From Actinomycetota bacterium (GTDB taxonomy: Bacteria; Actinomycetota; UBA4738; HRBIN12), in assembly GCA_035691205.1 (NCBI GenBank), contig DASSJM010000017.1, forward strand, positions 9,481 through 73,480: a DNA stretch of 64,000 nucleotides. Reading direction: 5' to 3'. A program made the translations under genes and the position numbers. The notes under the pieces were generated by a model, which was given only the letters and a program-made list of their open reading frames with translations, did not search any database and had not been told where the DNA came from. This document shows, piece by piece, positions 9,401 to 64,000 of the stretch (within the stretch, counting starts at the first letter, position 1; every line of letters starts with the position of its first letter).

Positions 9401-10162
9401 CTAGCCGACCGCGAGCAGGGCGGCCATCACGGCGAACCCGCCCGCGATGCCGAAGAACTGCACGACGCCGACGCGGATGTCGGATCCCTTGTGGAGCTCG
9501 GGGATCAGGTCGGCCCCGGCGATGTAGATGAACGCGCCGGCCGAGATCGCGAGCAGGGGCCGCTCGATCCCGCCGAGCGCGCCGTCCAGCAGGAGCGCGA
9601 TCGTCGCCCCGAGGACCGCCGTCATCGCGGAGGCGACGTTGTAGACGAGCGCCCGCTTGGGCGCGAGCCCCGCGTGGACCAGCACGCCGAGGTCGCCCAT
9701 CTCCTGGGGGATCTCGTGCAGCGCCACGGCGATCGTCGTGGCGATGCCGAGCGACGGGCTCACCAGGAACGAGCCGGCGATGATCGCGCCGTCCACGAAG
9801 TTGTGCACCCCGTCGCCGACCAGGTTCGTGAGCACCACCGGCTGCACGTGGTGGTGCTCGGGGGCGTTCAGCTGGTGATGGAGGTGGATGAACTTCTCGA
9901 GCACGTAGAGGAACAGGATCGACAGCGCCATCACCCAGGACAGCTCGACCGTGATGCCCCCGCTCTCGGCGAGCTCGGGCAGGAGGTGGAACAGCGTGTC
10001 GCCGAGGAGGGCGCCGACCGCGAAGCTCACCAGGATCGGAACGATCCTGCGGAGCAGCCCTTCTTGGACGACCAGAGCCACGATGCCCACGAACGCGATC
10101 GCGCTCACCGCGAGGACGGCGAGGATCGTCGCGCCCCAGACCGATGCGGAGGCGGCCAGCAC
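9401..10162 (-). CDS. ZIP family metal (zinc) transporter (ZupT-like)
   Basis: 253 aa, about 8 TM. His-rich loop HLHHQLNAPEHHHVQ. HNFVDGAIIAGSF and HEIPQEMGD are ZIP signature motifs. Confidence 0.9.
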   Translation of the reverse strand: MLAASASVWGATILAVLAVSAIAFVGIVALVVQEGLLRRIVPILVSFAVGALLGDTLFHLLPELAESGGITVELSWVMALSILFLYVLEKFIHLHHQLNAPEHHHVQPVVLTNLVGDGVHNFVDGAIIAGSFLVSPSLGIATTIAVALHEIPQEMGDLGVLVHAGLAPKRALVYNVASAMTAVLGATIALLLDGALGGIERPLLAISAGAFIYIAGADLIPELHKGSDIRVGVVQFFGIAGGFAVMAALLAVG

Positions 10163-29433: not shown

Positions 29434-29493
29434 CGCGGCCGAGGCTAGCACCCGTGCACGACCCGACCGTGGAGCGGGTACCGTGGGTACGCC

Positions 29494-30888
29494 ATGCCGA
29501 CCGAACGCTTCACCGCCCTGGACGCCTCGTTCCTGTACCTGGAGAGGCCCGCGATGCACATGCATGTGGCCGGGCTCTCGGTGTTCGATCCCTCGACGCG
29601 CCCGCGCGGGCCGCTGCGGTTCGAGGACGTGGCGAACGTCTTCGCCACGCGGTTGCACCTCGCGCCGCGCCTGCGACAGAAGGTCAAGACCGTGCCCTTC
29701 GGGCTCGGGTTGCCGGTCTGGGTCGACGACGCGGCGTTCGACCTTGGTTTCCACGTCCGCAGGGCGGCGCTGCCCTCGCCGGGCGGCCGACGCGAGCTCG
29801 CCGAGCAGGTCCAGCGCGTGCTCTCGCGCCCGCTCGATCGCTCCAAGCCCCTGTGGGAGCTCTACGTGATCGAGGGCCTCGAGGACGGCCACGTGGCCAC
29901 GCTCATGAAGGTCCACCACGCGATGATCGACGGCCTGTCGGGGATGCACCTCACGGCCGCGATGTTCGACCTGTCGCGCGAGCCGCGCGACGAACCGCCG
30001 CCGCCAGCGTGGGAGCCGGCGCCGGAACCCACGCCCCAGGACCTGCTGCGCGAGGCGTCCGAGGACCTCGTGACGCACCCCGCGCAGGCCCTCGCCCAGG
30101 CGTTCGAGGCGGTCCGGCGGACGCCCGCGCTCGCGGCCCTGGGTCTCGGCGCGGTGCTCTCGGGGTTCCGCAGCATCCTGGACATGGGCGCCCGTCCGGC
30201 CTCGCCGCTCGATGTGCGGATCGGACCCAACCGCCGGTTCGCGATGACCGATGCCCCGCTGCAGCGCTTCAAGGACATCAAGGACTCGCTCGGAGGTACG
30301 GTGAACGACGTCGTCCTGACGGTCGTCGGCGGGGCCCTGCACCGACTGCTGAAGGAGCGGAAGGAGCCGACCAAGGGGCGCACGCTCAGGGTCATGGTGC
30401 CGGTGTCGGTGCGCTCGGGCGGCGACGGTCCGCTCGGCAACCGCGTCGCGCCGGCGTTCATCGACCTGCCGGTCGGTCCCCTCGGGCCCAAGCGCCGGCT
30501 CGCCCTCGTCCGTGAGGGGACGCGCCACCTCAAGGAGTCGATGATGGCCATGAGCGCGGACACGATCATCGGACTGGGCGCGTACGCGCCGGGCGGGCTC
30601 CTCGCCGGGGCGGCGCGGTTGGCCAGCCGGGGGCCGTGGTTCAACCTCACGGTCTCCAACATCCCGGGTCCGCCCCAGCCCCTGTACATGGCCGGCGCCC
30701 GGCTGGTGGCCCAGTATCCGGCGATCCCGCTGGGTGAGAACTCGGCGCTATCGATCGCGTGTACCTCGCTCGGCGGGACGATGGCGTTCGGGCTGACCGG
30801 CGACTGGGACGGCATCCCGGACCTGGAGCGCCTCGCGTTCGCCCTGGACGAGTCCCTCGCCGAGATCTCGAAGGCCGCCGGCCTCTAG
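29494..30888 (+). CDS. Wax ester synthase/diacylglycerol acyltransferase (WS/DGAT)
   Basis: HHAMIDGLSG (HHxxxDG active site). 464 aa. Confidence 0.9.
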   Translation: MPTERFTALDASFLYLERPAMHMHVAGLSVFDPSTRPRGPLRFEDVANVFATRLHLAPRLRQKVKTVPFGLGLPVWVDDAAFDLGFHVRRAALPSPGGRRELAEQVQRVLSRPLDRSKPLWELYVIEGLEDGHVATLMKVHHAMIDGLSGMHLTAAMFDLSREPRDEPPPPAWEPAPEPTPQDLLREASEDLVTHPAQALAQAFEAVRRTPALAALGLGAVLSGFRSILDMGARPASPLDVRIGPNRRFAMTDAPLQRFKDIKDSLGGTVNDVVLTVVGGALHRLLKERKEPTKGRTLRVMVPVSVRSGGDGPLGNRVAPAFIDLPVGPLGPKRRLALVREGTRHLKESMMAMSADTIIGLGAYAPGGLLAGAARLASRGPWFNLTVSNIPGPPQPLYMAGARLVAQYPAIPLGENSALSIACTSLGGTMAFGLTGDWDGIPDLERLAFALDESLAEISKAAGL

Positions 30889-43303: not shown

Positions 43304-44044
43304 TTGACGCCTCGGGCGAGGACGAAGACACTCCCCAGATCGCCGGAGGAGGGGGAGAGCGTGGGCCGATCCGATGCGTACCAGCGTGACGTCGACACGC
43401 TCGCGGCAGAGTTGGAGCGCGTCGAAGCCGTCTTCCGCGGGCTCTCGGACGACGAGTGGACGATGAGCACCAAGCTCGTGCCGCTGGACACCGACAAGGC
43501 CCACTGGACGGTGTTCGAGCTCGCCGGGCACTTCGACATCTCGATCGGACTGACGCGGATGCTGATCGCGGACATCCAGGAGGGTCAGCCTGGCCGCGAC
43601 CGCACGAGCTTCTTCATCTTCCCCCGGTCCGAGGTCGCCCCCGTCGTCTATGACTACGCGTTCACGATGGTCGAGGGGAAGACCCCGGCCGAGATGCCCG
43701 ATGTCTTGCACGAGACCTTCTCGAAGACGATCGAGGAGTCGCGGGCGACGCCTCCGGAGGCGATCGGGCCCGGCTACTACGCGCTGATGCAGCTGGGCGA
43801 GTTCGTCCCGAGCCGGGTGCTGGAGGCCGTGGTCCACGGCCTCGACCTGACCGACGCCCTCGGCCGAGACACGATCGCGACGCCGGACGGCATCGCCATC
43901 ACCGCCGCGATCCTGGATGACCTCCTCGCACGACGGACTGTGCCCGGCCGGCCGGCCGACCTCCTCGACGACGACCTGGCGTGGATCCGGGCAGCCTCGG
44001 GTCGCGGGGAGCATCCGGACCCACGGCTTCCGCTGATCGGGTAG
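43304..44044 (+). CDS. Mycothiol-dependent maleylpyruvate-isomerase N-terminal domain family (TIGR03083/DinB_2-like)
   Basis: WTVFELAGHFD motif. Alternative GTG start at 43361. Confidence 0.75.
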   Translation: MTPRARTKTLPRSPEEGESVGRSDAYQRDVDTLAAELERVEAVFRGLSDDEWTMSTKLVPLDTDKAHWTVFELAGHFDISIGLTRMLIADIQEGQPGRDRTSFFIFPRSEVAPVVYDYAFTMVEGKTPAEMPDVLHETFSKTIEESRATPPEAIGPGYYALMQLGEFVPSRVLEAVVHGLDLTDALGRDTIATPDGIAITAAILDDLLARRTVPGRPADLLDDDLAWIRAASGRGEHPDPRLPLIG

Positions 44045-44056
44045 TCGCGGAGCATC

Positions 44057-44117
44057 AGCGGAGGCGGACGGGGATCGAACCCGCCTGGGAGCTCTCGCCC
44101 CCACACCGGTCTTGAAG
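44057..44117 (-). repeat. Partial copy of the tRNA-Sec 3' half (anticodon loop through 3' end), a direct repeat of 45512-45572 with 2 mismatches in about 59 nt
   Basis: cggaggcggacggggatcgaacccgcctgggagctctcgcccccacaccggtcttgaag versus cggaggcggacgggaatcgaacccgcctgggagctctcgcccccacaccggttttgaag. Looks like an att-type duplication scar. Confidence 0.75.
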
Positions 44118-44201
44118 TCAGCTCGCGTACGTTCCGTGTCCTGTCGCCAGATCGCGGCTCGTCGCGTTCCGCAAGTCAGGGTGAGTCTGCAGGGGCGGTC
44201 G

Positions 44202-44831
44202 TCAGAACCAGGTGGACGCCCTGCAGACCTGACCCGTCTGCTGATCGACGGCGTACGCCGCGTACCCTTCGAGCGCGCCCCGCTCCGGGAGGGACCCCTG
44301 AACCGCGAGGACGCCGCCGTCGCTCGCCACCCTGGTGCCTCGGAAGAACACGGAACTATTGGGCCAAGGCGGAGGAAAGGGGATGGTTGGGCTGTGATGG
44401 CGGAGCCGGATGAGCCAGCTATCGCCCACCGGGCTGCGATGGACCTCAAACCGTACCTTGATCCGGCTGTCTACCCTCGTGAGTTCCAGGTGCGATCTGG
44501 CACCGTCGCTGCACGTTCCTACCGACGCCGCGTCCGGCTCTGCTGAAGCAAGAACAGGTGGAGGTCCGGTCACCGCCGGTCCGGTCACCGCCGGTCCGGT
44601 CACCGCCGGTACTGGAGCGGCCGGTGTCTCCGAAGCCCGGATCGCATCGAGTCCCGAGATGCCCGCGAACGCGATCGCTGAGGCCGCGACGGCCGCCATC
44701 AACACCGTGCCTGTCTGCCTGCGTCGGATACGCCGGAACGTGTTCGGCCCGGGTGTCGGGTCGCCCCCGAGCATGTCCTGCGCGTGTCGGTGGAACGTTT
44801 CACGGAGATCGCGATCGAGATCGTTCGTCAT
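44202..44831 (-). CDS. Anti-sigma factor (single TM) with an extracytoplasmic Cys-containing domain paralogous to the secreted protein at 45726-46115
   Basis: ATGA overlap with the ECF sigma stop. TM GTVLMAAVAASAIAFAGISGL. AVTGP x3 linker. C-terminal domain GTCSDG...KVRFEV...GDSWLIRLRHH...TGQVCRAS. Confidence 0.65.
   Translation of the reverse strand: MTNDLDRDLRETFHRHAQDMLGGDPTPGPNTFRRIRRRQTGTVLMAAVAASAIAFAGISGLDAIRASETPAAPVPAVTGPAVTGPAVTGPPPVLASAEPDAASVGTCSDGARSHLELTRVDSRIKVRFEVHRSPVGDSWLIRLRHHSPTIPFPPPWPNSSVFFRGTRVASDGGVLAVQGSLPERGALEGYAAYAVDQQTGQVCRASTWF
44566..44610. repeat. Perfect 3x15-nt tandem repeat (ccggtcaccgccggt) encoding (P)AVTGP x3 in the anti-sigma linker
   Basis: Seen directly in the sequence. 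Confidence 0.85.
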
Positions 44832-45349
44832 CGGTCACCTCCCGCCAGGTGGGCGCGAAGGGTGCTTGTCGCGCGGGTCACGAGTTGGTGGAACGCTCCC
44901 GTCGAGCAGCCGAGGACGGCAGCCGCCTCGCGTTCGGGGAGATCCTCGTAGTAACGGAGCACGATCGCTGCGCGCTGACGAGCCGGAAGGACCGCGAGCG
45001 CGCGCCACAGATCGTCGCGCATCTCGGGTTCACCCTCGAACGTCACGGTCGTGGTTGGCTGACGCTGGATCCAGTCTCGCTCCAACGCGCGACGCCGCAG
45101 CTGCGACGTGAACAGGTTCACCATCGTCCGACGCAGGTACCCCGGGAACGCATCGGGTGTCCGGAGATGCCCGAACCGGCCCGTCACTCGGACGAACGCC
45201 TCCTGCACGAGATCCTCGGCGAGGTCCCGGTTGCCCGTTAGGAAGTAGGCGGTCGTGAGGGCCGAGGGGGCGTTGCGCAGGTAGAGCTCCTCGAGCCGTG
45301 CCTGCCGGCCCGTCGTCTCTTCGGCAACCTGGGTCTCTACCTGATCCAT
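44828..45349 (-). CDS. ECF (group 4) RNA polymerase sigma factor
   Basis: Region 2 LAEDLVQEAFVRVTGRF. Region 4 LPARQRAAIVLRYYEDLPEREAAAVLGCSTGAFHQL. Start at ATG 45349 (MDQVETQ...); an alternative upstream ATG is at 45421. Confidence 0.8.
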   Translation of the reverse strand: MDQVETQVAEETTGRQARLEELYLRNAPSALTTAYFLTGNRDLAEDLVQEAFVRVTGRFGHLRTPDAFPGYLRRTMVNLFTSQLRRRALERDWIQRQPTTTVTFEGEPEMRDDLWRALAVLPARQRAAIVLRYYEDLPEREAAAVLGCSTGAFHQLVTRATSTLRAHLAGGDR

Positions 45350-45513
45350 CACTCGCCTCGCCAACTTAGACGTTGAGCGATGCAGGATGAGTACGCTCGA
45401 CTCCTGACCCTCGAAGGGCACCCCGAATCACCGGCGCGCCGTGCGAAGCCGGCTCCCGGTGCGCCCGATGGCCGCCCACGGCGGACGCGTAGCGGTTGCG
45501 CTTCCGCACGTAG

Positions 45514-45606
45514 CGGAGGCGGACGGGAATCGAACCCGCCTGGGAGCTCTCGCCCCCACACCGGTTTTGAAGACCGGGGGGCCCACCAGGCGCCCTGACG
45601 CCTCCG
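45514..45606 (-). tRNA. selC: tRNA-Sec (selenocysteine, anticodon UCA)
   Basis: Reverse complement GGAGGCGTCAGGGCGCCTGGTGGGCCCCCCGGTCTTCAAAACCGGTGTGGGGGCGAGAGCTCCCAGGCGGGTTCGATTCCCGTCCGCCTCCG. Anticodon stem CCGGT/ACCGG with loop CTTCAAA (anticodon TCA, U33). Long variable arm TGGGGGC-GAGA-GCTCCCA. T-loop GGTTCGATTCC. 93 nt. CCA not encoded. Confidence 0.75.
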
Positions 45607-45725: not shown

Positions 45726-46115
45726 GTGATGAGGAAGATGGCAGGGATCGTGCTGGCGGGGGCGCTGGCCTTCGCGATGATCGGCGGGAACGGGGTCGCC
45801 CTGGCCGGGGACAACGACGTGATCCGGGAGGGCTCCTGCTCGGGATCGGCCGACTGGAAGCTGAAGCTCTCGCCGGAGGACGGCGGCCTCGAGGTGGAGT
45901 ACGAGGTCGACCAGAACGTCACGGGCGACCGGTGGCGGGTCAAGATCCGTCACGACGGGGACCTGGTCTTCAACGGCGTCCGGACGACCCGTGGGGCGAG
46001 CGGATCGTTCGAGGTCCGGATCGTCGAGCCCGACAACAGCGGCAACGACGCGTTCCGGGCGCGTGCCCGCAACCTGTCCACCGGCGAGGTCTGCGTCGGC
46101 AGCGCCTCGTTCTGA
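45726..46115 (+). CDS. Small secreted protein (129 aa) with a Cys pair, paralogous to the anti-sigma factor sensor domain
   Basis: Signal peptide MMRKMAGIVLAGALAFAMIGGNGVALAG. GSCSGS...EVEYEV...GDRWRVKIRHDG...TGEVCVGS. Strong SD aaggaggg. Confidence 0.7.
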   Translation: MMRKMAGIVLAGALAFAMIGGNGVALAGDNDVIREGSCSGSADWKLKLSPEDGGLEVEYEVDQNVTGDRWRVKIRHDGDLVFNGVRTTRGASGSFEVRIVEPDNSGNDAFRARARNLSTGEVCVGSASF

Positions 46116-49309: not shown

Positions 49310-49485
49310 ACCCTCGTCGCCGACGGACGACATCCCCCGACAAGAACGGCGAATCGGTCGCCTTGGTGATTCACGCCGCCGGCTCCGGCGACTAGTGTTC
49401 GCGCACGCGGTTCGCCGCGACTCCCCGAAGTCCTCTCCCTCGCTTCCCCGTGGTGTCGGTGCTTCCCCTCGGACGTGGAGCAGGG

Positions 49486-50559
49486 ATGGAGGAGGTCGCG
49501 CGGATCGTGCTGGCGCTCGAGGCACCGGACGTCGTCGAGGAGGTCATGCACTTCCTCGACCGCACCGGCCGGGCCCGCGTCGTCGGCACCGCGGTCGACG
49601 GGTCGCAGCTCGCGGACGCGGTCCGGCAGCTCGAGCCCGACGCGGTGGTCGCCTCGCCGGCGCTCGTTGGCTCGCGTGAGGCGCTGAACGGGAGCGCGCT
49701 CCTCGCCCTGGACACCTCGCAGTCGGTCGGCTCGCTCCGCCGTGCCATCCGGGCCGGAGCCAGCGGCTTCTACCTGTGGCCCGCCGAGCGCGAGGAGCTC
49801 GCGCTCGCCGCGGCGCGCGTGCGGCCTCAGTCGGAGCAGGCTGCCGGCGAGCGCGCCCCGGTGCTCGCGGTCTACGCGCCCCGAGGGGGTGCCGGTGCGA
49901 CCTTCATCGCGACGCATCTCGCCGCCGCGTACGCGCGACGCGAGACGCGGTGCGTCCTCGTGGACCTCGACGTCGTGTTCGCCGACGCGTCGGCCGCCGT
50001 CGGGATCCGGGACGACGAGGAGGTTCGAACGGTCGCCGACCTGCGAGCCCTGGCCGACGAGGTCGCGCCGCGCCACGTCGAGGAGATCGCGTGGCGTCAT
50101 CCCGTCGGGTTCGACGTCCTCCTCGCGCCGGGCACGAACGATGGTCGGGTCAGCGGCGACGACTACCGGCGCGCGATCGGCGCCGCCCGGCGAACGTGCG
50201 ACGTGGTGGTGCTCCACGTGCCGCGGGCGCTCGACGAGGTCGCGAGGGCGGGGCTCGAGATCGCGGACCTGGTGCTGATGGTGCTCGGCCTCGACGTGCT
50301 GTCGTTCCGCGACGCCAAGCGAGCGATCGAGGCCGCCGGGCTCGACGGACGTTGCGCGTTCGTCGTCGATCGCACGGCGCGTTCGGAGATCACCCCCGGC
50401 GACGTGAAACGCGTGTTCGGGCAGGAGCCGCTCGCGGTGATCCCATCGGACCACGGCGTTCGGGCGGCGCAGGACCGAGGCGAGCTGCTCCCCGCGCGCG
50501 GTCGGGTCGGGCGAGCCGTGGATCGGCTGGCTCGAACCGCGATCGAGGTGGCGAGGTGA
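49486..50559 (+). CDS. Flp pilus assembly protein CpaE/TadZ-like (receiver-like N-domain plus MinD/ParA-type ATPase)
   Basis: VLAVYAPRGGAGATFIATHLA (deviant Walker A). Start ATG 49486 (MEEVARIV) after ggagcaggg. Alternative GTG at 49450. Confidence 0.8.
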   Translation: MEEVARIVLALEAPDVVEEVMHFLDRTGRARVVGTAVDGSQLADAVRQLEPDAVVASPALVGSREALNGSALLALDTSQSVGSLRRAIRAGASGFYLWPAEREELALAAARVRPQSEQAAGERAPVLAVYAPRGGAGATFIATHLAAAYARRETRCVLVDLDVVFADASAAVGIRDDEEVRTVADLRALADEVAPRHVEEIAWRHPVGFDVLLAPGTNDGRVSGDDYRRAIGAARRTCDVVVLHVPRALDEVARAGLEIADLVLMVLGLDVLSFRDAKRAIEAAGLDGRCAFVVDRTARSEITPGDVKRVFGQEPLAVIPSDHGVRAAQDRGELLPARGRVGRAVDRLARTAIEVAR

Positions 50560-51839
50560 GCCGCAGGGACGCGCTCGCCGAGGTCCGGCGCGGGCTCCAC
50601 CAGCGCCTGCTCGGCAGGGTCGACGCCCAGGCGCTCGAGGGCGTACCTCGGGCGGAGCGACGGCTCCGCGTCCGCGAGGAGGCGCTCGCGGTGCTCCGCG
50701 AGCAGGGGCACATCCTGCCGCAAGGTGCGCTCGCCAAGGTCGTGAACGAGGTTTCGGATGCGGTCGTCGGGCTGGGACCGATCGAGTTCCTGCTCAAGGA
50801 CCCCGACGTCACCGAGGTGATGGTGAACGGGCCCGACGACGTCTACGTGGAGCGGAAGGGGCGGATCGAGAGGGTGGAGGACCGTCTGTTTGAGGGGGAG
50901 GAGGCGGTCCTCCACGTGATCGAACGTATCGTGGCACCGCTGGGTCTTCGGGTCGACGCAACGTCACCTTGGGTGGACGCGCGACTGCCGGATGGCTCTC
51001 GGGTGCACGCGATCGTCCCGCCCCTTTCGCTCTGCGGTCCCGTGCTCAACGTGCGGACCTTCGCGTCGATCCCCCTCGGGCCGGAGGCGCTGCTCGCCGG
51101 CGGAACCCTCGGGCCGCGGATGCTCGCCTTCCTCGCGGCGTGCGTGCGGGGTCGGGCCAACGTGGTGATCTCGGGCGGGACGAGCTCAGGCAAGACGACG
51201 CTGCTCGGGGTGCTCTCGTCCTTCATCCCGGACGGGGAGCGGCTCATCACGATCGAGGATGCCGCCGAGCTCCGCCTGGGCAAGCCGCACGTGATCGGGC
51301 TCGAGGCCCGGCCGGCGAGCGCCGAGGGGCGTGGCGAGGTGACCGTGCGGGACCTGGTGCGGAACGCGCTCCGGATGCGGCCCGACCGGATCATCGTCGG
51401 CGAGGTCCGCGGAGGAGAGGCGCTCGACATGCTGCAGGCGATGAACACGGGTCACGATGGCTCGCTCTCGACCGCGCATGCGAACTCGGCACGCCACTCG
51501 CTGTGGCGACTGGAGACGATGGCGCTGATGTCGGACGTCGACCTGCCCGTCGCCCATATCCGCGCGCAGGTGGCATCGGCGATCGACGTCGTCGTGCACA
51601 CCGCACGCCTGCGGGATGGCCGTCGCGTGGTGTTCCAGATCGCGAGCGTCGAGGGGCTGGACGACGAAGGGGATCCCCTGGTCACGGAGGTATTCGGGTT
51701 CCGCCCCCGGTTCGGTCGGCACGGTGCGTTCGTGTGCTCGGGCGTGGTGCCTGCGGTGGCCCGACTCCTTCGGGAGCGCGGGGCCGTCCTGGAAGACGAC
51801 GCGTTCGTGCCGGGCATCGACGGGTCGGAGGCAGCGTGA
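50556..51839 (+). CDS. Tad/CpaF secretion ATPase (TadA)
   Basis: Walker A GGTSSGKTT. Walker B/Asp box RIIVGEVRGGEA. His box TGHDGSLSTAHAN. GTGA overlap with cpaE. Confidence 0.9.
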   Translation: MSRRDALAEVRRGLHQRLLGRVDAQALEGVPRAERRLRVREEALAVLREQGHILPQGALAKVVNEVSDAVVGLGPIEFLLKDPDVTEVMVNGPDDVYVERKGRIERVEDRLFEGEEAVLHVIERIVAPLGLRVDATSPWVDARLPDGSRVHAIVPPLSLCGPVLNVRTFASIPLGPEALLAGGTLGPRMLAFLAACVRGRANVVISGGTSSGKTTLLGVLSSFIPDGERLITIEDAAELRLGKPHVIGLEARPASAEGRGEVTVRDLVRNALRMRPDRIIVGEVRGGEALDMLQAMNTGHDGSLSTAHANSARHSLWRLETMALMSDVDLPVAHIRAQVASAIDVVVHTARLRDGRRVVFQIASVEGLDDEGDPLVTEVFGFRPRFGRHGAFVCSGVVPAVARLLRERGAVLEDDAFVPGIDGSEAA

Positions 51840-52666
51840 TCGGGCTCCTTGGCGCCGCCGCACTCTCTGCGTTCGCCTTCGTGTCGCTTGCCTTGGCGCT
51901 CCAGGCCGCGGACCGACGCGGGGTGCTCGAGCGAGCGGGATGGATGCCGGTGGCGAGCGGCGGCTTCCCCCGGGTGCCCGTGAGGGCCGACGCCCTGATC
52001 GTGCCCGCCGTGGTCCTCGCGTGGATCGCAGGTGTGCGGATCGGAGGCGTCGTCCTCGGGCTCGCAGCCGCCGTCGCCGTGGCGGTGGTGCCGTGGCTCG
52101 GGCGGCGGCGCCGCGACGCCGCGCGCGATCGAGCCGCGCAGGAGCAGCTCGCCGAGGGCGTCGGCGTGATCGCCTCGGGCCTCCGCTCGGGGCTGTCCCT
52201 CGCTCGGTCCATCGAGCTCGCCTCCGGGGAGCTCGCACCACCGCTCGGTCCGTCGTTCCGCCGGGCCGCAGATCGGATCGCGCTCGGTGAACCCCTCGAG
52301 GCGGCGATCGACTCATGGGCGGTCGAGGTCGGCGGTCCCGACGTCCGGGTCACGGCCGGCGTCCTGCGGCTCCATCGAAGGACCGGCGGCGGGCTGGCCA
52401 CGGCGCTGGACGGCCTCGCCTCGACCCTTCGAGCCCGCCGGAGCGCCGCCCGGGAGCTCCGGTCGCTCACCGCGCAGGCGCGCCTGTCCGCCACGATCCT
52501 CGGCCTGCTGCCGATCGGGTTCTTCGTCTTCCTGTCGGTCGTCGCGCGCGAGGATCTACGGCTCGCGTTCGGAACACCGGTCGGCTCGGGCGCCGTGATC
52601 CTCGGGTTCACGCTGCAGGCGCTCGCCTATCTGTGGATCCGCCACCTGCTCAGGGTCGAGCCGTGA
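51836..52666 (+). CDS. Type II secretion system F-family protein TadB
   Basis: GTGA-coupled. Polytopic. GspF-like repeats. Confidence 0.8.
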   Translation: MIGLLGAAALSAFAFVSLALALQAADRRGVLERAGWMPVASGGFPRVPVRADALIVPAVVLAWIAGVRIGGVVLGLAAAVAVAVVPWLGRRRRDAARDRAAQEQLAEGVGVIASGLRSGLSLARSIELASGELAPPLGPSFRRAADRIALGEPLEAAIDSWAVEVGGPDVRVTAGVLRLHRRTGGGLATALDGLASTLRARRSAARELRSLTAQARLSATILGLLPIGFFVFLSVVAREDLRLAFGTPVGSGAVILGFTLQALAYLWIRHLLRVEP

Positions 52667-53490
52667 TCGCGGTTCTGGCGGCCTCGCTCGCCGCGATGTC
52701 GAGCACGCTCGCGGTCGGAGCGCTCGCGATCCGGACGCGCGGGTCGCTCGCGGCCAGCCTGCCGACGACCGACGTGACCGACCCTCGGCGGTCGCCGCTC
52801 GCGGTGATCGGGTCGCTCCCGATGGTGCGGCGGATCGGGCTCCGAGGCCCCTCGCTTCGTCGTCTGGAGGCGAGCGGGGGTCCATGGACCGAGCGCGAGG
52901 CGATCGGCGCGAAGGCGCTGTCGGCTGGAGCGGCCGCGCTGCTGTGCGTCCTCGCCGGTGCCTGGCCGCTGGCGCTGCCGCTGGTCGTGCTCGGGCTCCG
53001 GCTACCCGAGGTCTGGCTTTCGAGACTGGCCGCCAGGCGGCTGACTTCCGCTGACCGTGAGGTGCCGGTGCTGCTCGACCTGCTGGCGGTGGCCGTCTCG
53101 GCCGGCCTGCCGCCGCAGGCCGCGCTCCGACGGGCGATCGACGCCGCCGAAGGTCCCCTGGCGGACGAGCTCCGGCTGGTCGTGCGTGCGACGGACCTGG
53201 GCGGACGGTGGCGGGACGAGCTGTCGATGGCCGCCCGTCGCCTCGGCCTTCCCGATCTGGACCGGGTCGTGGGCACGCTCACGCGTGCGGAGGCGCTCGG
53301 CTCCTCGCTGGCTGAGGAGGTGGCGCGCCTGGCCGCGGACGTCCGCGAGCGACGCCGCGCGGTCGCCACCGAGCGCGCCCGGACGGCCCCGGTGAAGATG
53401 CTGTTCCCCCTCGTGTTCCTCGTCCTCCCCGCGTTCCTCCTCCTCACGGTGGTCCCGGTGCTCATCGCCACCGTCGAGTCGATCCGTTAG
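52663..53490 (+). CDS. Type II secretion system F-family protein TadC
   Basis: GTGA-coupled. Polytopic. Paralogous to TadB. Confidence 0.8.
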   Translation: MIAVLAASLAAMSSTLAVGALAIRTRGSLAASLPTTDVTDPRRSPLAVIGSLPMVRRIGLRGPSLRRLEASGGPWTEREAIGAKALSAGAAALLCVLAGAWPLALPLVVLGLRLPEVWLSRLAARRLTSADREVPVLLDLLAVAVSAGLPPQAALRRAIDAAEGPLADELRLVVRATDLGGRWRDELSMAARRLGLPDLDRVVGTLTRAEALGSSLAEEVARLAADVRERRRAVATERARTAPVKMLFPLVFLVLPAFLLLTVVPVLIATVESIR

Positions 53491-53506
53491 GAGGAGGTGC
53501 ACCGAG

Positions 53507-53737
53507 ATGCTGCTGTTCTGGTACGTGCGGGCACGCTCGCTCGTCGCCGATCTGTGGGTGCGGGCGTGGGTTCGGGCGCGCGTGGAGGCTGGTCAGACCA
53601 CGGCCGAGTACGCCCTGGTGATCCTCGCGGCCGCCGCCGTCGCCGTGGTGCTGATCGCGTGGGCCCGGTCCTCGGGCAAGCTGCCCGAGTTCTTCGACAA
53701 CATCATCGACCAGGTCGCGGGGAGCGCCGGAGGGTAG
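53507..53737 (+). CDS. flp: Flp/Fap family type IVb pilin
   Basis: EAGQTTAEYALVILAAAAVAVVLIAW matches the Flp motif (G/xxxxEY plus hydrophobic helix). 76 aa. Confidence 0.8.
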   Translation: MLLFWYVRARSLVADLWVRAWVRARVEAGQTTAEYALVILAAAAVAVVLIAWARSSGKLPEFFDNIIDQVAGSAGG

Positions 53738-53760
53738 TGGGGTGCTGGCGAGCGCTGGGG

Positions 53761-54141
53761 TCAGCGCTTCTCCATGTACTTCTTCAGCCCGAGGAGCGGA
53801 AGGATGAACGCGGCCAGGAGCGACGCCACCCAGACGATCACGGCGGCCAGGATCCAGGTCGTGGTCCCGTCGATCGTGAACCCATCGGAGATCAGGTCGG
53901 TGATGATCAGCGCGATCAGGGTGGCGATCAGGGCCACGCCTCCCAGGGCCGCCGACTCGTTCCTCCTGAACATGTTCGCCATGAACGGGGTCATCAGGGC
54001 GAGCGCGATGGTGAAGATGATGACCGCCGTGATGAACGCCGTCGCGTCGATGCTCATGTCGTCCAGGACGAGCGAGGCGACCCACAGGCCGAGGGCATTC
54101 GCCAGCAGCATCACACCGGTGCGGACCAGGAATCGGATCAT
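53761..54141 (-). CDS. Small polytopic membrane protein, phage-holin-4_2-like family (PF04020-like)
   Basis: Start MIRFLVRTGVMLLANALGLWVASLVL at ATG 54141. Four TM helices. Lies on the opposite strand between flp and tadE. Confidence 0.6.
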   Translation of the reverse strand: MIRFLVRTGVMLLANALGLWVASLVLDDMSIDATAFITAVIIFTIALALMTPFMANMFRRNESAALGGVALIATLIALIITDLISDGFTIDGTTTWILAAVIVWVASLLAAFILPLLGLKKYMEKR

Positions 54142-54196
54142 GGCGGCATCCTGGCACGCCGTGGCTTGCGGGGCAAACCGGCAGGGCCCCTCGCCC

Positions 54197-54595
54197 GTGG
54201 CGCAGCCGGCTCGAGCCGGTGCGCACGAACGCGGCTCGGCCTCGGTCGAGTTCGCACTGGTGCTGCCGATCCTGCTCCTGGTCCTCATGGCGCTCGTGCA
54301 GGTGGGAGCGTTGGCACGGGATCAGCTGGTGCTCACGCAGGCATCACGGGCGGGGGCGCGGGAGGCGGCGGTCGACGGGTCGGTCGAGGCGGTGCAGGAG
54401 GCGGTTCGCTCGGCGGCGACGGCGCTGGACGCCGAGCGACTGTCGGTCGACGTCGTGTGGAGCGGCGCGCGCGGGGATCCGGTCACGGTCTCGATCGTCT
54501 ACGAGGTGCCGATCGCGTCGCCGCTCGCCGGCTGGGCACTGCCCGAGGCCGTGACCCTCCGCTCCAGCGCGACGATGCGCCAGGAGTTCGCGTGA
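54197..54595 (+). CDS. TadE-like pilus assembly protein
   Basis: ERGSASVEFALVLPILLLVLMALVQVG is a TadE N-terminal motif. GTG start. Confidence 0.75.
   Translation: MAQPARAGAHERGSASVEFALVLPILLLVLMALVQVGALARDQLVLTQASRAGAREAAVDGSVEAVQEAVRSAATALDAERLSVDVVWSGARGDPVTVSIVYEVPIASPLAGWALPEAVTLRSSATMRQEFA

Positions 54596-59437: not shown

Positions 59438-59441
<4 letters not shown>
58266..59441 (-). CDS. Response regulator receiver fused to an adenylate/guanylate cyclase (class III CYCc) domain
   Basis: VLVVDDDP...DVILLDVVMPQMDG (receiver Asp). Cyclase blocks TTLFADMVGFT, GDGLMVLFG, NTGRCMVG. GTGA overlap with the upstream kinase. Confidence 0.9.
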
Positions 59442-63220
<3,779 letters not shown>

Positions 63221-63240
63221 TCCCCTTTCGGTGCATCGCC

Positions 63241-64000
63241 CTATGCGGCCTCGGTGCAGGTTAGCCCGCGGACCGCGAGGGTGCGCCTGCCGGTCTCGAG
63301 GTCGCGCGTCCCCACCGCGAGCACCGTGCCGTCGGGGAGCGCGTCCACGGCGGTGAGCGCGTCGGACCCGCCCACGGGTGGACCATCGACGAACCTCCAG
63401 CGCCGGCCGTCCCAGCGAACCACCGCGACGCGGCTCGCCCCCTCTTCCCCCGCGGGACGCGATCCGACCGACCAGAGGTCCGCGCCGCCCACCGCGGCGA
63501 CGTCGGAGAGCACCGCGTCGTCGGGGATCGTCGCGGCTTCGGTCCACGCGGACCCGTCGAACCGCTGGATCGGCGTGCCGACGGCCCACACGTCGCTCGA
63601 CGCGAAGGCCTCGATCGCGGCGAGCTCGCCGTCCACCTCGGTCTCGCTCTTGCTCCACGCGAGCCCGTTGAAGCGCAGGATCAGCGGTCGGTTCTGCTGG
63701 TAGCCGACGACCCACAGATCGGTCGGGGAGACGGCGTCGACGTCGCGCAGCATCGCCCGGCCTCCTCCGATCGCGCGCCGGACGTCGACGATCTCCCAGG
63801 TGAAGCCGTCCCAGTGCAGCACGAGCGCGCGTTCGAGCGAGGCGGCGGGCTCGCCGACGTACCCGACCGCCCACACGTCGCTGGGCGAGAGCGCGACGAC
63901 GTCGTTCAGGACGCCGTCCACCTCGTCGGGCACCTCGACCTCGGCCCACGCGGTCCCGTCGAAGCGCAGGACCAAGGGGCTCTCGTCGAACCCGCTGGAG
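63241..64000 (-). CDS. Beta-propeller-repeat protein (W-x-V-G repeats), C-terminal part; the gene continues beyond the window end
   Basis: Repeats DVWAVGY, DLWVVGY, DVWAVGT, DLWSVGS, VLAVGT at about 45-aa spacing. Frame open to the window edge. Stop is 20 nt upstream of the kinase start. Confidence 0.55.
   Translation of the reverse strand, partial: SSGFDESPLVLRFDGTAWAEVEVPDEVDGVLNDVVALSPSDVWAVGYVGEPAASLERALVLHWDGFTWEIVDVRRAIGGGRAMLRDVDAVSPTDLWVVGYQQNRPLILRFNGLAWSKSETEVDGELAAIEAFASSDVWAVGTPIQRFDGSAWTEAATIPDDAVLSDVAAVGGADLWSVGSRPAGEEGASRVAVVRWDGRRWRFVDGPPVGGSDALTAVDALPDGTVLAVGTRDLETGRRTLAVRGLTCTEAA

Follow-up and report, generated by a model that had tools for sequence, protein, structure and literature searches.

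In Proteobacteria, the selenocysteine tRNA gene, selC, is a classic hot spot of integration, occupied in E. coli by islands such as LEE, PAI-I536 and SHI-2 with their P4-type integrases. Pf phages of Pseudomonas also integrate at tRNA-Sec (PMC7549136). The principle by which the Islander program recognises such islands is that integration splits the tRNA gene, the island regenerates the gene, and the distal limit of the insert can be recognised by the displaced fragment; Islander tabulates 2,083 islands with an 'A' (anticodon-centred) and 1,836 with a 'J' sublocation, and 3,760 with 3' fragments (PMC4383910). Islands bounded by such repeats can also lack the integration module, as do 15 of those at ssrA in Dehalococcoides, which their authors suggest may be cis-mobilizable elements (CIMEs) (PMC3146451). 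Here we describe a locus of this kind in a 64,000-bp stretch of DNA from an Actinomycetota bacterium (positions 9,481 to 73,480 of contig DASSJM010000017.1, assembly GCA_035691205.1), which we refer to as the window. In it, an intact tRNA-Sec gene and a displaced copy of its 3' part enclose a 1.4-kb islet that carries two regulatory genes and no integrase. We interpret this interval as a decayed integrated element that has kept both of its att-like sites, comparable to a CIME, and we put the probability of this interpretation at roughly 0.72.

The order of the locus is an intact tRNA-Sec gene (45513-45605, minus strand), 1,394 bp of intervening DNA (44118-45511), and a co-oriented fragment of the 3' part of the gene (44057-44117, minus strand). 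A repeat search of the window found that the fragment is one copy of a 61-nt direct repeat, with 59 of the 61 bases identical between 44057-44117 and 45512-45572. The tRNA-proximal copy, which is attL-like, is the 3' part of the intact gene on the minus strand, and the distal copy is attR-like. In the sense of the tRNA, the repeat begins with the first anticodon-loop base (the loop reads CUUCAAA) and stops 2 nt beyond the discriminator base. The copies are mismatched at the final position of each of two loops, the T loop and the anticodon loop, and the two bases found in the fragment are seen in none of the tRNA-Sec genes of relatives. The 33-nt core of the repeat has exactly two sites in the window at up to 3 mismatches, compared with an expectation of 0 from 100 dinucleotide-preserving shuffles, and an ungapped scan of both strands of the 64-kb window found no further degenerate copies. 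An earlier reading of this DNA, made from the sequence alone (the sequence-only reading), had described a copy of the 3' half of the tRNA in direct orientation with two mismatches, which is what the repeat search recovers over 61 nt.

Apart from its missing integrase, the locus fits the Islander principle in every respect. This fit, together with the existence of repeat-bounded islands without integrases at ssrA (PMC3146451), is the reason why we read the interval as a decayed element. The content of the interval agrees with what is expected of a CIME: both repeat copies are present, and two regulatory genes are all that lies between them. In the scenario that we propose, a mobile element would have integrated site-specifically into the anticodon-loop region of the tRNA-Sec gene, most likely by means of a tyrosine integrase. 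The element's own copy of the 3' part of the tRNA would now complete the functional gene, and the previous 3' part would have been displaced to the distal side of the insert (44057-44117). Later internal deletions would have removed the integrase and everything else, leaving a 1.4-kb islet between attL-like and attR-like repeats that may retain some residual capacity for att recombination. The sequence-only reading had proposed a decayed or minimal element that delivered the regulatory pair; the evidence does not distinguish a decayed from a minimal element, and we favour decay.

Both genes of the islet are on the minus strand. The gene nearer the tRNA (44828-45349, 173 aa) codes for an extracytoplasmic function (ECF) sigma factor, with Pfam domains Sigma70_r2 (1.1e-11) and Sigma70_r4_2 (1.7e-13) and without r3 or r1.2. 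It scores 82.4 bits against the NCBIfam model for the ECF superfamily (TIGR02937, cutoff 42.9). By its similarity to the NCBIfam model TIGR02983 (SigE-fam_strep) we class it as a probable SigE-family ECF sigma factor, with the qualification that its score of 140.8 bits is just below the cutoff of 141.55. The second gene (44202-44831, 209 aa) overlaps the stop codon of the sigma gene in the sequence ATGA. Its product, the partner protein, has no match in Pfam or NCBIfam and no recognised anti-sigma domain (zf-HC2, RskA or similar). It consists of a short N-terminal helix, a hydrophobic segment, a linker in which the motif PAVTG occurs three times, and a C-terminal beta-sandwich of eight strands. 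The linker is encoded by a 15-nt tandem repeat of three copies, the third degenerate (44563-44622, minus strand). In the AlphaFold2 model, residues 100-209 have a pLDDT of about 90, and the hydrophobic segment and linker are of low confidence. We also looked for a function of the ectodomain through its fold, and set this aside when Foldseek searches of the PDB returned only generic Ig-like beta-sandwiches (best match CrdA, E = 1.2e-3).

Because the gene is paired with the sigma gene (by the ATGA overlap, and by the position of its homologues after sigma genes) and because of the membrane topology of the protein, putative anti-sigma factor is a reasonable label for the partner. Translationally coupled to the sigma factor and with an extracytoplasmic beta-sandwich, it would presumably keep the sigma factor inactive until a signal arrives at the cell envelope. 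The sequence-only reading had called the two genes an ECF sigma/anti-sigma pair; the sigma half of that call is secured by the Pfam domains, and the anti-sigma half has no domain match behind it and comes from pairing and topology only. That these two genes are the entire content between the repeat copies, with no integrase, had also been proposed, and is borne out by our Pfam and integrase searches: among about 40 ORFs (open reading frames) scanned in the window we found no integrase, transposase or recombinase, and the ORFs of the islet have no Pfam Phage_integrase match.

Little of the islet is non-coding. The 162 nt between the tRNA 3' end and the start codon of the sigma gene (45350-45511, minus strand) presumably comprise an element-derived att arm and the sigma promoter, and they include a CGTCTAA motif about 20 nt upstream of the ribosome-binding site of the sigma gene. 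At the other end, 84 nt separate the stop codon of the partner gene from the displaced fragment (44118-44201, minus strand). A GC-rich stem-loop at about 44189-44228 overlaps that stop codon, and the predicted RNA fold of 44118-44240 (minus strand) has a free energy of -54.6 kcal/mol (z = -2.9); the stem-loop may be a terminator without a U tract. Scans of the islet with sigma-70 promoter and terminator consensus sequences gave no match.

The base composition of the islet genes also sets them apart. The sigma gene has a G+C content at third codon positions (GC3) of 0.80 and the partner gene one of 0.75. Across the window, 66 gene-like ORFs average 0.904 (sd 0.043), and the genes that flank the interval have values of 0.88-0.95.

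The identity of the tRNA gene is clear. ARAGORN calls a single tRNA in the 64-kb window, a tRNA-SeC with anticodon tca (UCA in the RNA), and the Rfam tRNA-Sec model RF01852 matches over its full length (1-91) at 45515-45605 on the minus strand, with 75.1 bits (gathering score 47; E = 1.3e-13). The long variable arm is paired in the Rfam alignment. Bacterial tRNA-Sec has an extended acceptor plus T stem of 13 bp (8+5). In the window's gene the acceptor stem has seven canonical pairs and then a U:C mismatch, and Rfam flags two non-canonical pairs; the acceptor sequence with its U:C mismatch is kept in relatives, and the whole gene is 100% identical to the tRNA-Sec gene of one of them (locus L024; we use L and P numbers for loci and contigs outside the window). 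The call of an intact tRNA-Sec gene in the sequence-only reading is accepted by both programs, and the coordinates given there, 45514-45606, are one base off. The gene makes it plausible that the source organism decodes selenocysteine; selA, selB, selD and fdh are not among the approximately 40 ORFs scanned in the window.

Could the arrangement be an artefact of assembly, in which two loci were joined wrongly through a common 61-nt sequence? The window comes from a metagenome-assembled genome (MAG; contig P0001, 89.6 kb), independent Logan contigs break inside the repeat, and 44104-44580 is spanned by no independent contig. A break inside the repeat is expected of Logan contigs such as L126 and L127, which come from a 31-mer assembly graph. 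The fragment is a separate locus, because two of its bases are not those of the intact gene. Contig L127, which was assembled from another sample, joins the left-flank gene to the variant fragment and is identical to the window through 44103, and near-identical contigs from other samples (L001, L002 and L124) give independent evidence that the sigma gene comes next after the tRNA. The repeat, at 61 nt, is moreover shorter than a typical read. We consider a misassembly very improbable.

The gene to the left of the fragment, which forms the outer boundary of the insert, is a DinB/MDMPI-like gene (43361-44044, plus strand; Pfam MDMPI_N) that ends 12 nt before the fragment. Its exact protein is present in both L126 and L127, which end inside the repeat. 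Contig L126 differs from the window in the 44045-44103 region: it has the tRNA-like A in the T loop of the displaced fragment, and the trailer CGAGGCTCC where the window has CTGATGCTCC. L126 could be an empty-site allele. The substitutions in the fragment, and the difference in L126, are consistent with drift in a fragment that would be non-functional.

On the other side of the tRNA, at its 5' end and outside the insert, is a gene for a small secreted protein of 128 aa (45729-46115, plus strand), whose orthologues lie beside tRNA-Sec in loci L003, L073 and L216/L217. To compare the locus with its relatives we searched with the tRNA's 3' end in one GTDB genome per species and examined 8-kb blocks at 120 loci or more, nearly all of them from Actinomycetota. 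The synteny on the 5' side (a HAD hydrolase gene, with or without the small secreted protein) is kept in seven loci among the matches listed. The most informative relatives are L216 and L217, which we found through their HAD homologues: their tRNA-Sec is 97%, the small protein 69% and the HAD protein 83% identical to those of the window, and they have the same 5' synteny, without an ECF pair and without a second copy of the tRNA 3' part. Their 3' flank (CGAAGGGAACnnTGTAAGAACC) is common to L024 and L073 and differs from that of the window; directly 3' of tRNA-Sec, L024 and L216 are 89% identical over 134 nt (L024:35-168). There is no pair in L024 in the 168 nt downstream of the tRNA that the sequence covers, so a duplicate beyond that point is possible. 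Since L216 and L217 have neither pair nor duplicate, and share their 3' flank with L024 and L073, the arrangement in the window is not ancestral to the group. The sequence-only reading had named an ancient local duplication, with the same partial copy in related genomes around unrelated content, as what would speak against an insertion; L216 and L217 do not have the partial copy.

Other relatives have other DNA at the 3' side of selC: a Ppx/GppA phosphatase gene in L003, a Pat-like acetyltransferase gene in L087, and a small ORF with an MFS transporter gene in L104. The 5' side of selC is also variable in close relatives, since the contig of P0091 (JGI 3300056388), whose HAD protein is 93% identical, has no tRNA next to the HAD gene and has an adenylate-cyclase gene in the place of the small protein and tRNA-Sec. 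We made some further observations in L216 and L217. The 1.35 kb 3' of tRNA-Sec in L216 (L216:1730-3076) has no called gene and looks like a frameshifted alpha/beta-hydrolase gene followed by a coiled-coil ORF that reaches the tRNA. Between tRNA-Sec and the small protein gene, both loci have a nucleotidyltransferase-like ORF of 165 aa (L216:3211-3708 and L217:4312-4809; weak matches to DUF6036 and AbiEii) and a 62-aa ORF, neither of which is present in the window. C-terminal motifs had led us to suspect that a pseudogene of a serine recombinase adjoins tRNA-Sec in L216 and L024; we dropped the idea after Pfam searches and tblastn against plasmids gave nothing.

This variability bears on a second explanation, in which the fragment was left by an earlier, unrelated integration, the DNA of which later disappeared or gave way to other DNA, and the pair arrived by homologous recombination or local rearrangement, or is native and the 3' flank of selC was shuffled. 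The repeat would then not mark the limits of whatever brought in the pair. In each relative that we examined the DNA 3' of selC is rearranged, the sequence of the fragment differs among strains (L126 and L127), and a native paralogue of the sensor domain is next door, in the small secreted protein. In addition, a homologous pair in locus L209 lies 3.5 kb from a tRNA-Sec fragment in the opposite relative orientation, which suggests rearrangement in variable regions linked to selC. By the logic of tRNA integration, however, the DNA between a regenerated gene and its fragment is what was inserted, unless a second event is invoked. Both genes of the interval deviate in GC3 and those just outside do not, so that the break coincides with the repeats, and searches with Pfam and for repeats found neither transposase genes nor inverted repeats at the borders of the interval. 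We regard this explanation as unlikely, though of the alternatives to a decayed element it is the one that we would take most seriously.

Fragments of tRNA-Sec are recurrent in Actinomycetota. Among the matches listed, ARAGORN finds an intact tRNA-Sec in 101 of 120 loci; 10 of the 120 have a 3' fragment only, with no tRNA-Sec by ARAGORN or at the Rfam gathering score, and four have an intact gene with extra copies of its 3' end (L088, L096, L100 and L042). Orphan or extra 3' fragments are thus present in about 12% of the actinobacterial selC loci among those matches. Some of the fragments lie beside tyrosine integrases, and elements that carry an integrase also make use of selC in Actinomycetota. 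In an IMG/VR provirus (L208), a tyrosine integrase gene (PF00589) is immediately downstream of an intact tRNA-Sec; in L101 a 61-nt fragment adjoins a truncated Phage_integrase ORF; and in L052 a full-length integrase gene adjoins a fragment. Complete or partial integrases are found close to tRNA-Sec, or to fragments of it, in L106, L052, L006, L065, L023 and L040. The fragments of L101 and L209, in unrelated contexts, start at the same position in the anticodon loop as the fragment in the window. The survey extends selC as an integration hot spot from Proteobacteria to Actinomycetota.

A different type of boundary is seen in two of the loci with extra copies. In the MAG contig JAXDJH010000016.1 (L088:1148-5381), an intact tRNA-Sec is followed by three copies of its 3' end of 26-29 nt, one of them 62 nt after the gene and the other two bracketing a lone GH92 glycosidase gene. 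In Planotetraspora silvatica (L096:4798-5683), an extra copy 770 bp away encloses a single ORF of 161 aa. The copies in both loci begin in the T arm, unlike the anticodon-loop start in the window, and we found no integrase in the 8-kb blocks of either locus. The anticodon-loop and T-arm types of boundary correspond to the 'A' and 'J' sublocations of Islander (PMC4383910).

In our protein collection the partner protein has 89 homologues with two architectures, a membrane-anchored form of about 200 aa and a secreted form of about 130 aa, and in every context that we retrieved (L209-L213, L214, L221 and the contig of P0009) the gene for the 200-aa form is directly downstream of an ECF sigma gene. 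The sigma/partner module is present in at least four other genomic contexts, and is a portable unit. The family has an invariant pair of Cys residues, an invariant Trp and an invariant Glu, and is covered by no Pfam or NCBIfam model. In one homologous locus, L214:6461-8624, a pair 48% identical to that of the window is directly downstream of a tRNA-Ala gene and in the orientation of the tRNA; we looked for an att repeat around it, and no repeat of the tRNA-Ala 3' end was detectable. A phage origin of the cargo was likewise discarded: the partner has no relatives in IMG/VR, and sigma matches there are only 22-27% identical.

The closest homologues show a mosaic pattern. The part of the gene that encodes the ectodomain (window 44187-44622) is 82-83% identical in nucleotide sequence to L209:4789-5195 (and to the other loci in L209-L213) and to L221:820-1238, with 68-72% identity in protein, whereas the sigma factors of these loci and the window are only 33-36% identical in protein and the N-termini of the partners cannot be aligned. 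The homology stops at the threefold 15-nt tandem repeat, which suggests that sensor domains are swapped at the PAVTG linker. L209 is also the locus with an orphan tRNA-Sec fragment of 57 nt (L209:535-591), 100% identical to the 3' part of the window's tRNA-Sec and with the same anticodon-loop boundary, at the distance and orientation from its sigma/partner pair described above. We found no intact tRNA-Sec within the 13-kb L209 locus, and tblastx of L209 against the window gave noise apart from the matches already known.

A third explanation is that the islet is a minimal att-flanked cassette that never carried an integrase. Another selC-specific element would have supplied the integrase in trans for its insertion or exchange at selC, so that it would be a hitchhiker like an integron cassette or a satellite. 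L088 (with GH92) and L096 (with the 161-aa ORF, 770 bp) are other tiny segments without integrases between copies of the tRNA-Sec 3' end, the insert in the window is tightly packed (its non-coding ends measure 162 and 84 nt), and its sensor domain seems modular, with 82-83% nucleotide identity to L209 and L221 next to a sigma factor of only 33-36% protein identity. Against this, the fragments in L088 and L096 are 26-29 nt long and start in the T arm, so they do not form one system with the window's 61-nt anticodon-loop type, and the units have no conserved motif in their inner flanks. We found no circular copies and no copies at alternative sites, and the close homologues are in ordinary chromosomal contexts without att repeats. 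Decay of elements into CIMEs is documented and sufficient (PMC5704250; PMC3146451). In our view such a cassette is a little less probable even than the replacement of an older insertion. We give slightly less credence again to the broader idea that selC in soil Actinomycetota is a docking site for integrase-less cassettes of one or two genes (the window, L088 and L096), exchanged in trans in an integron-like manner, with ECF sensor domains swapped at the PAVTG linker. If it were true, cassette docking at selC would be a gene-capture system built on a tRNA gene.

Several results weigh against the interpretation of the islet as a decayed element. There is no trace of its recombinase: tblastn with two selC-associated integrases gave a best E-value of 0.6 in the window, and an iterated jackhmmer integrase profile, run over all the loci that we fetched, had no match in the window but recovered integrases from six other loci. 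With no integrase or integrase pseudogene present, the class of the recombinase is assigned by analogy. The inner flanks next to the repeats have no recognisable motif in common between the window and L101 or L209, so a common element family cannot be named. The GC3 deviation of the pair is clear, and only moderate rather than extreme. The ectodomain of the partner is a paralogue of the small secreted protein across the tRNA (29% identity, E = 2e-12 by BLASTP), and the beta-sandwich family (89 homologues) seems to be confined to related soil Actinomycetota, so any donor would be closely related. Searches for an empty site also failed from both sides. From the left flank, none of 80 metagenomic loci with an orthologue of the DinB/MDMPI-like gene (70-87% identity) carries tRNA-Sec, the fragment or another gene of the window; from the right flank, the relatives found through HAD homologues (L216 and L217) have a 3' flank unrelated to that of the window, and attB cannot be reconstructed. 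The sequence-only reading had taken the repeat as the attL/attR scar of an insertion, and the geometry, with its 'A' sublocation (PMC4383910), agrees with this; that the insertion was precise is an inference, because there is no clean empty site and the flank beyond the fragment is non-syntenic in the relatives that we retrieved.

Elsewhere in the window there are Tad/Flp pilus genes (49396-54595; ParA-like ATPase, T2SSF and TadE), a gene for a WS/DGAT wax-ester synthase (29449-30888), and, adjoining a response-regulator adenylate cyclase gene, a gene for a hybrid histidine kinase that has five PAS domains and is about 1,500 aa long (59438-64000).

As a structure, the islet is a standard att scar; such scars are commonplace in genomes, and this one opens no new question. 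If our interpretation is right, it illustrates that the entire surviving cargo of horizontally moved DNA can be a module for signal transduction, here an ECF sigma factor with its sensor, which would rewire envelope-stress regulation. Integrase-dependent finders such as Islander miss islets of this type by design.

The closest described counterparts are the CIMEs of Streptococcus thermophilus, such as CIME19258 and CIMEL3catR3 (PMC5704250, PMC6323972). Like the islet, they have attL and attR flanks, carry no integrase, excision or transfer genes, are located at the 3' end of a conserved gene, and are read as decayed. For the streptococcal CIMEs, cis mobilisation by an incoming integrative and conjugative element (ICE) has been demonstrated; for the islet we identified no parent ICE or integrative and mobilizable element (IME), and no tandem partner in the window. 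The islet also differs from them in its host, a soil actinobacterium, in its tRNA-Sec target, in its size of 1.4 kb and in its cargo of a regulatory pair. The Dehalococcoides ssrA islands (PMC3146451) are similarly bounded by direct repeats, derived from the 3' end of a small-RNA gene present in one copy, and have a highly variable downstream flank, but they have a 20-bp tmRNA repeat, a serine recombinase (DsiB), long tandem arrays and rdhA cargo, in contrast to the single 61-nt tRNA-Sec repeat of anticodon-loop type, without a recombinase, seen here; the only comparable array that we saw at selC is the one in L088, in another genome.

The proteobacterial selC islands and phages have the same target as the islet, with the insert downstream of the tRNA. 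They are 10-100 kb long, with an integrase next to the tRNA and virulence or phage cargo, whereas the islet is 1.4 kb long, has no integrase and is in another phylum. With the tRNA islands of Islander (PMC4383910) it shares the regenerated tRNA gene, the displaced 3' fragment in direct orientation and the anticodon-centred ('A') site, and it would nevertheless be filtered out by Islander because an integrase gene is required in each candidate. The gene pair itself resembles the SigE-family ECF/anti-sigma modules (TIGR02983), in which the gene for a sigma factor with regions 2 and 4 overlaps the next gene, whose product is a single-pass membrane protein; it differs from them in that the partner matches no known anti-sigma model and has an uncharacterised beta-sandwich ectodomain that also exists as a free-standing secreted protein. 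What is new here is the phylum, for selC as a target gene, and the purely regulatory cargo; otherwise the locus is a well-known kind of att-flanked islet without an integrase.

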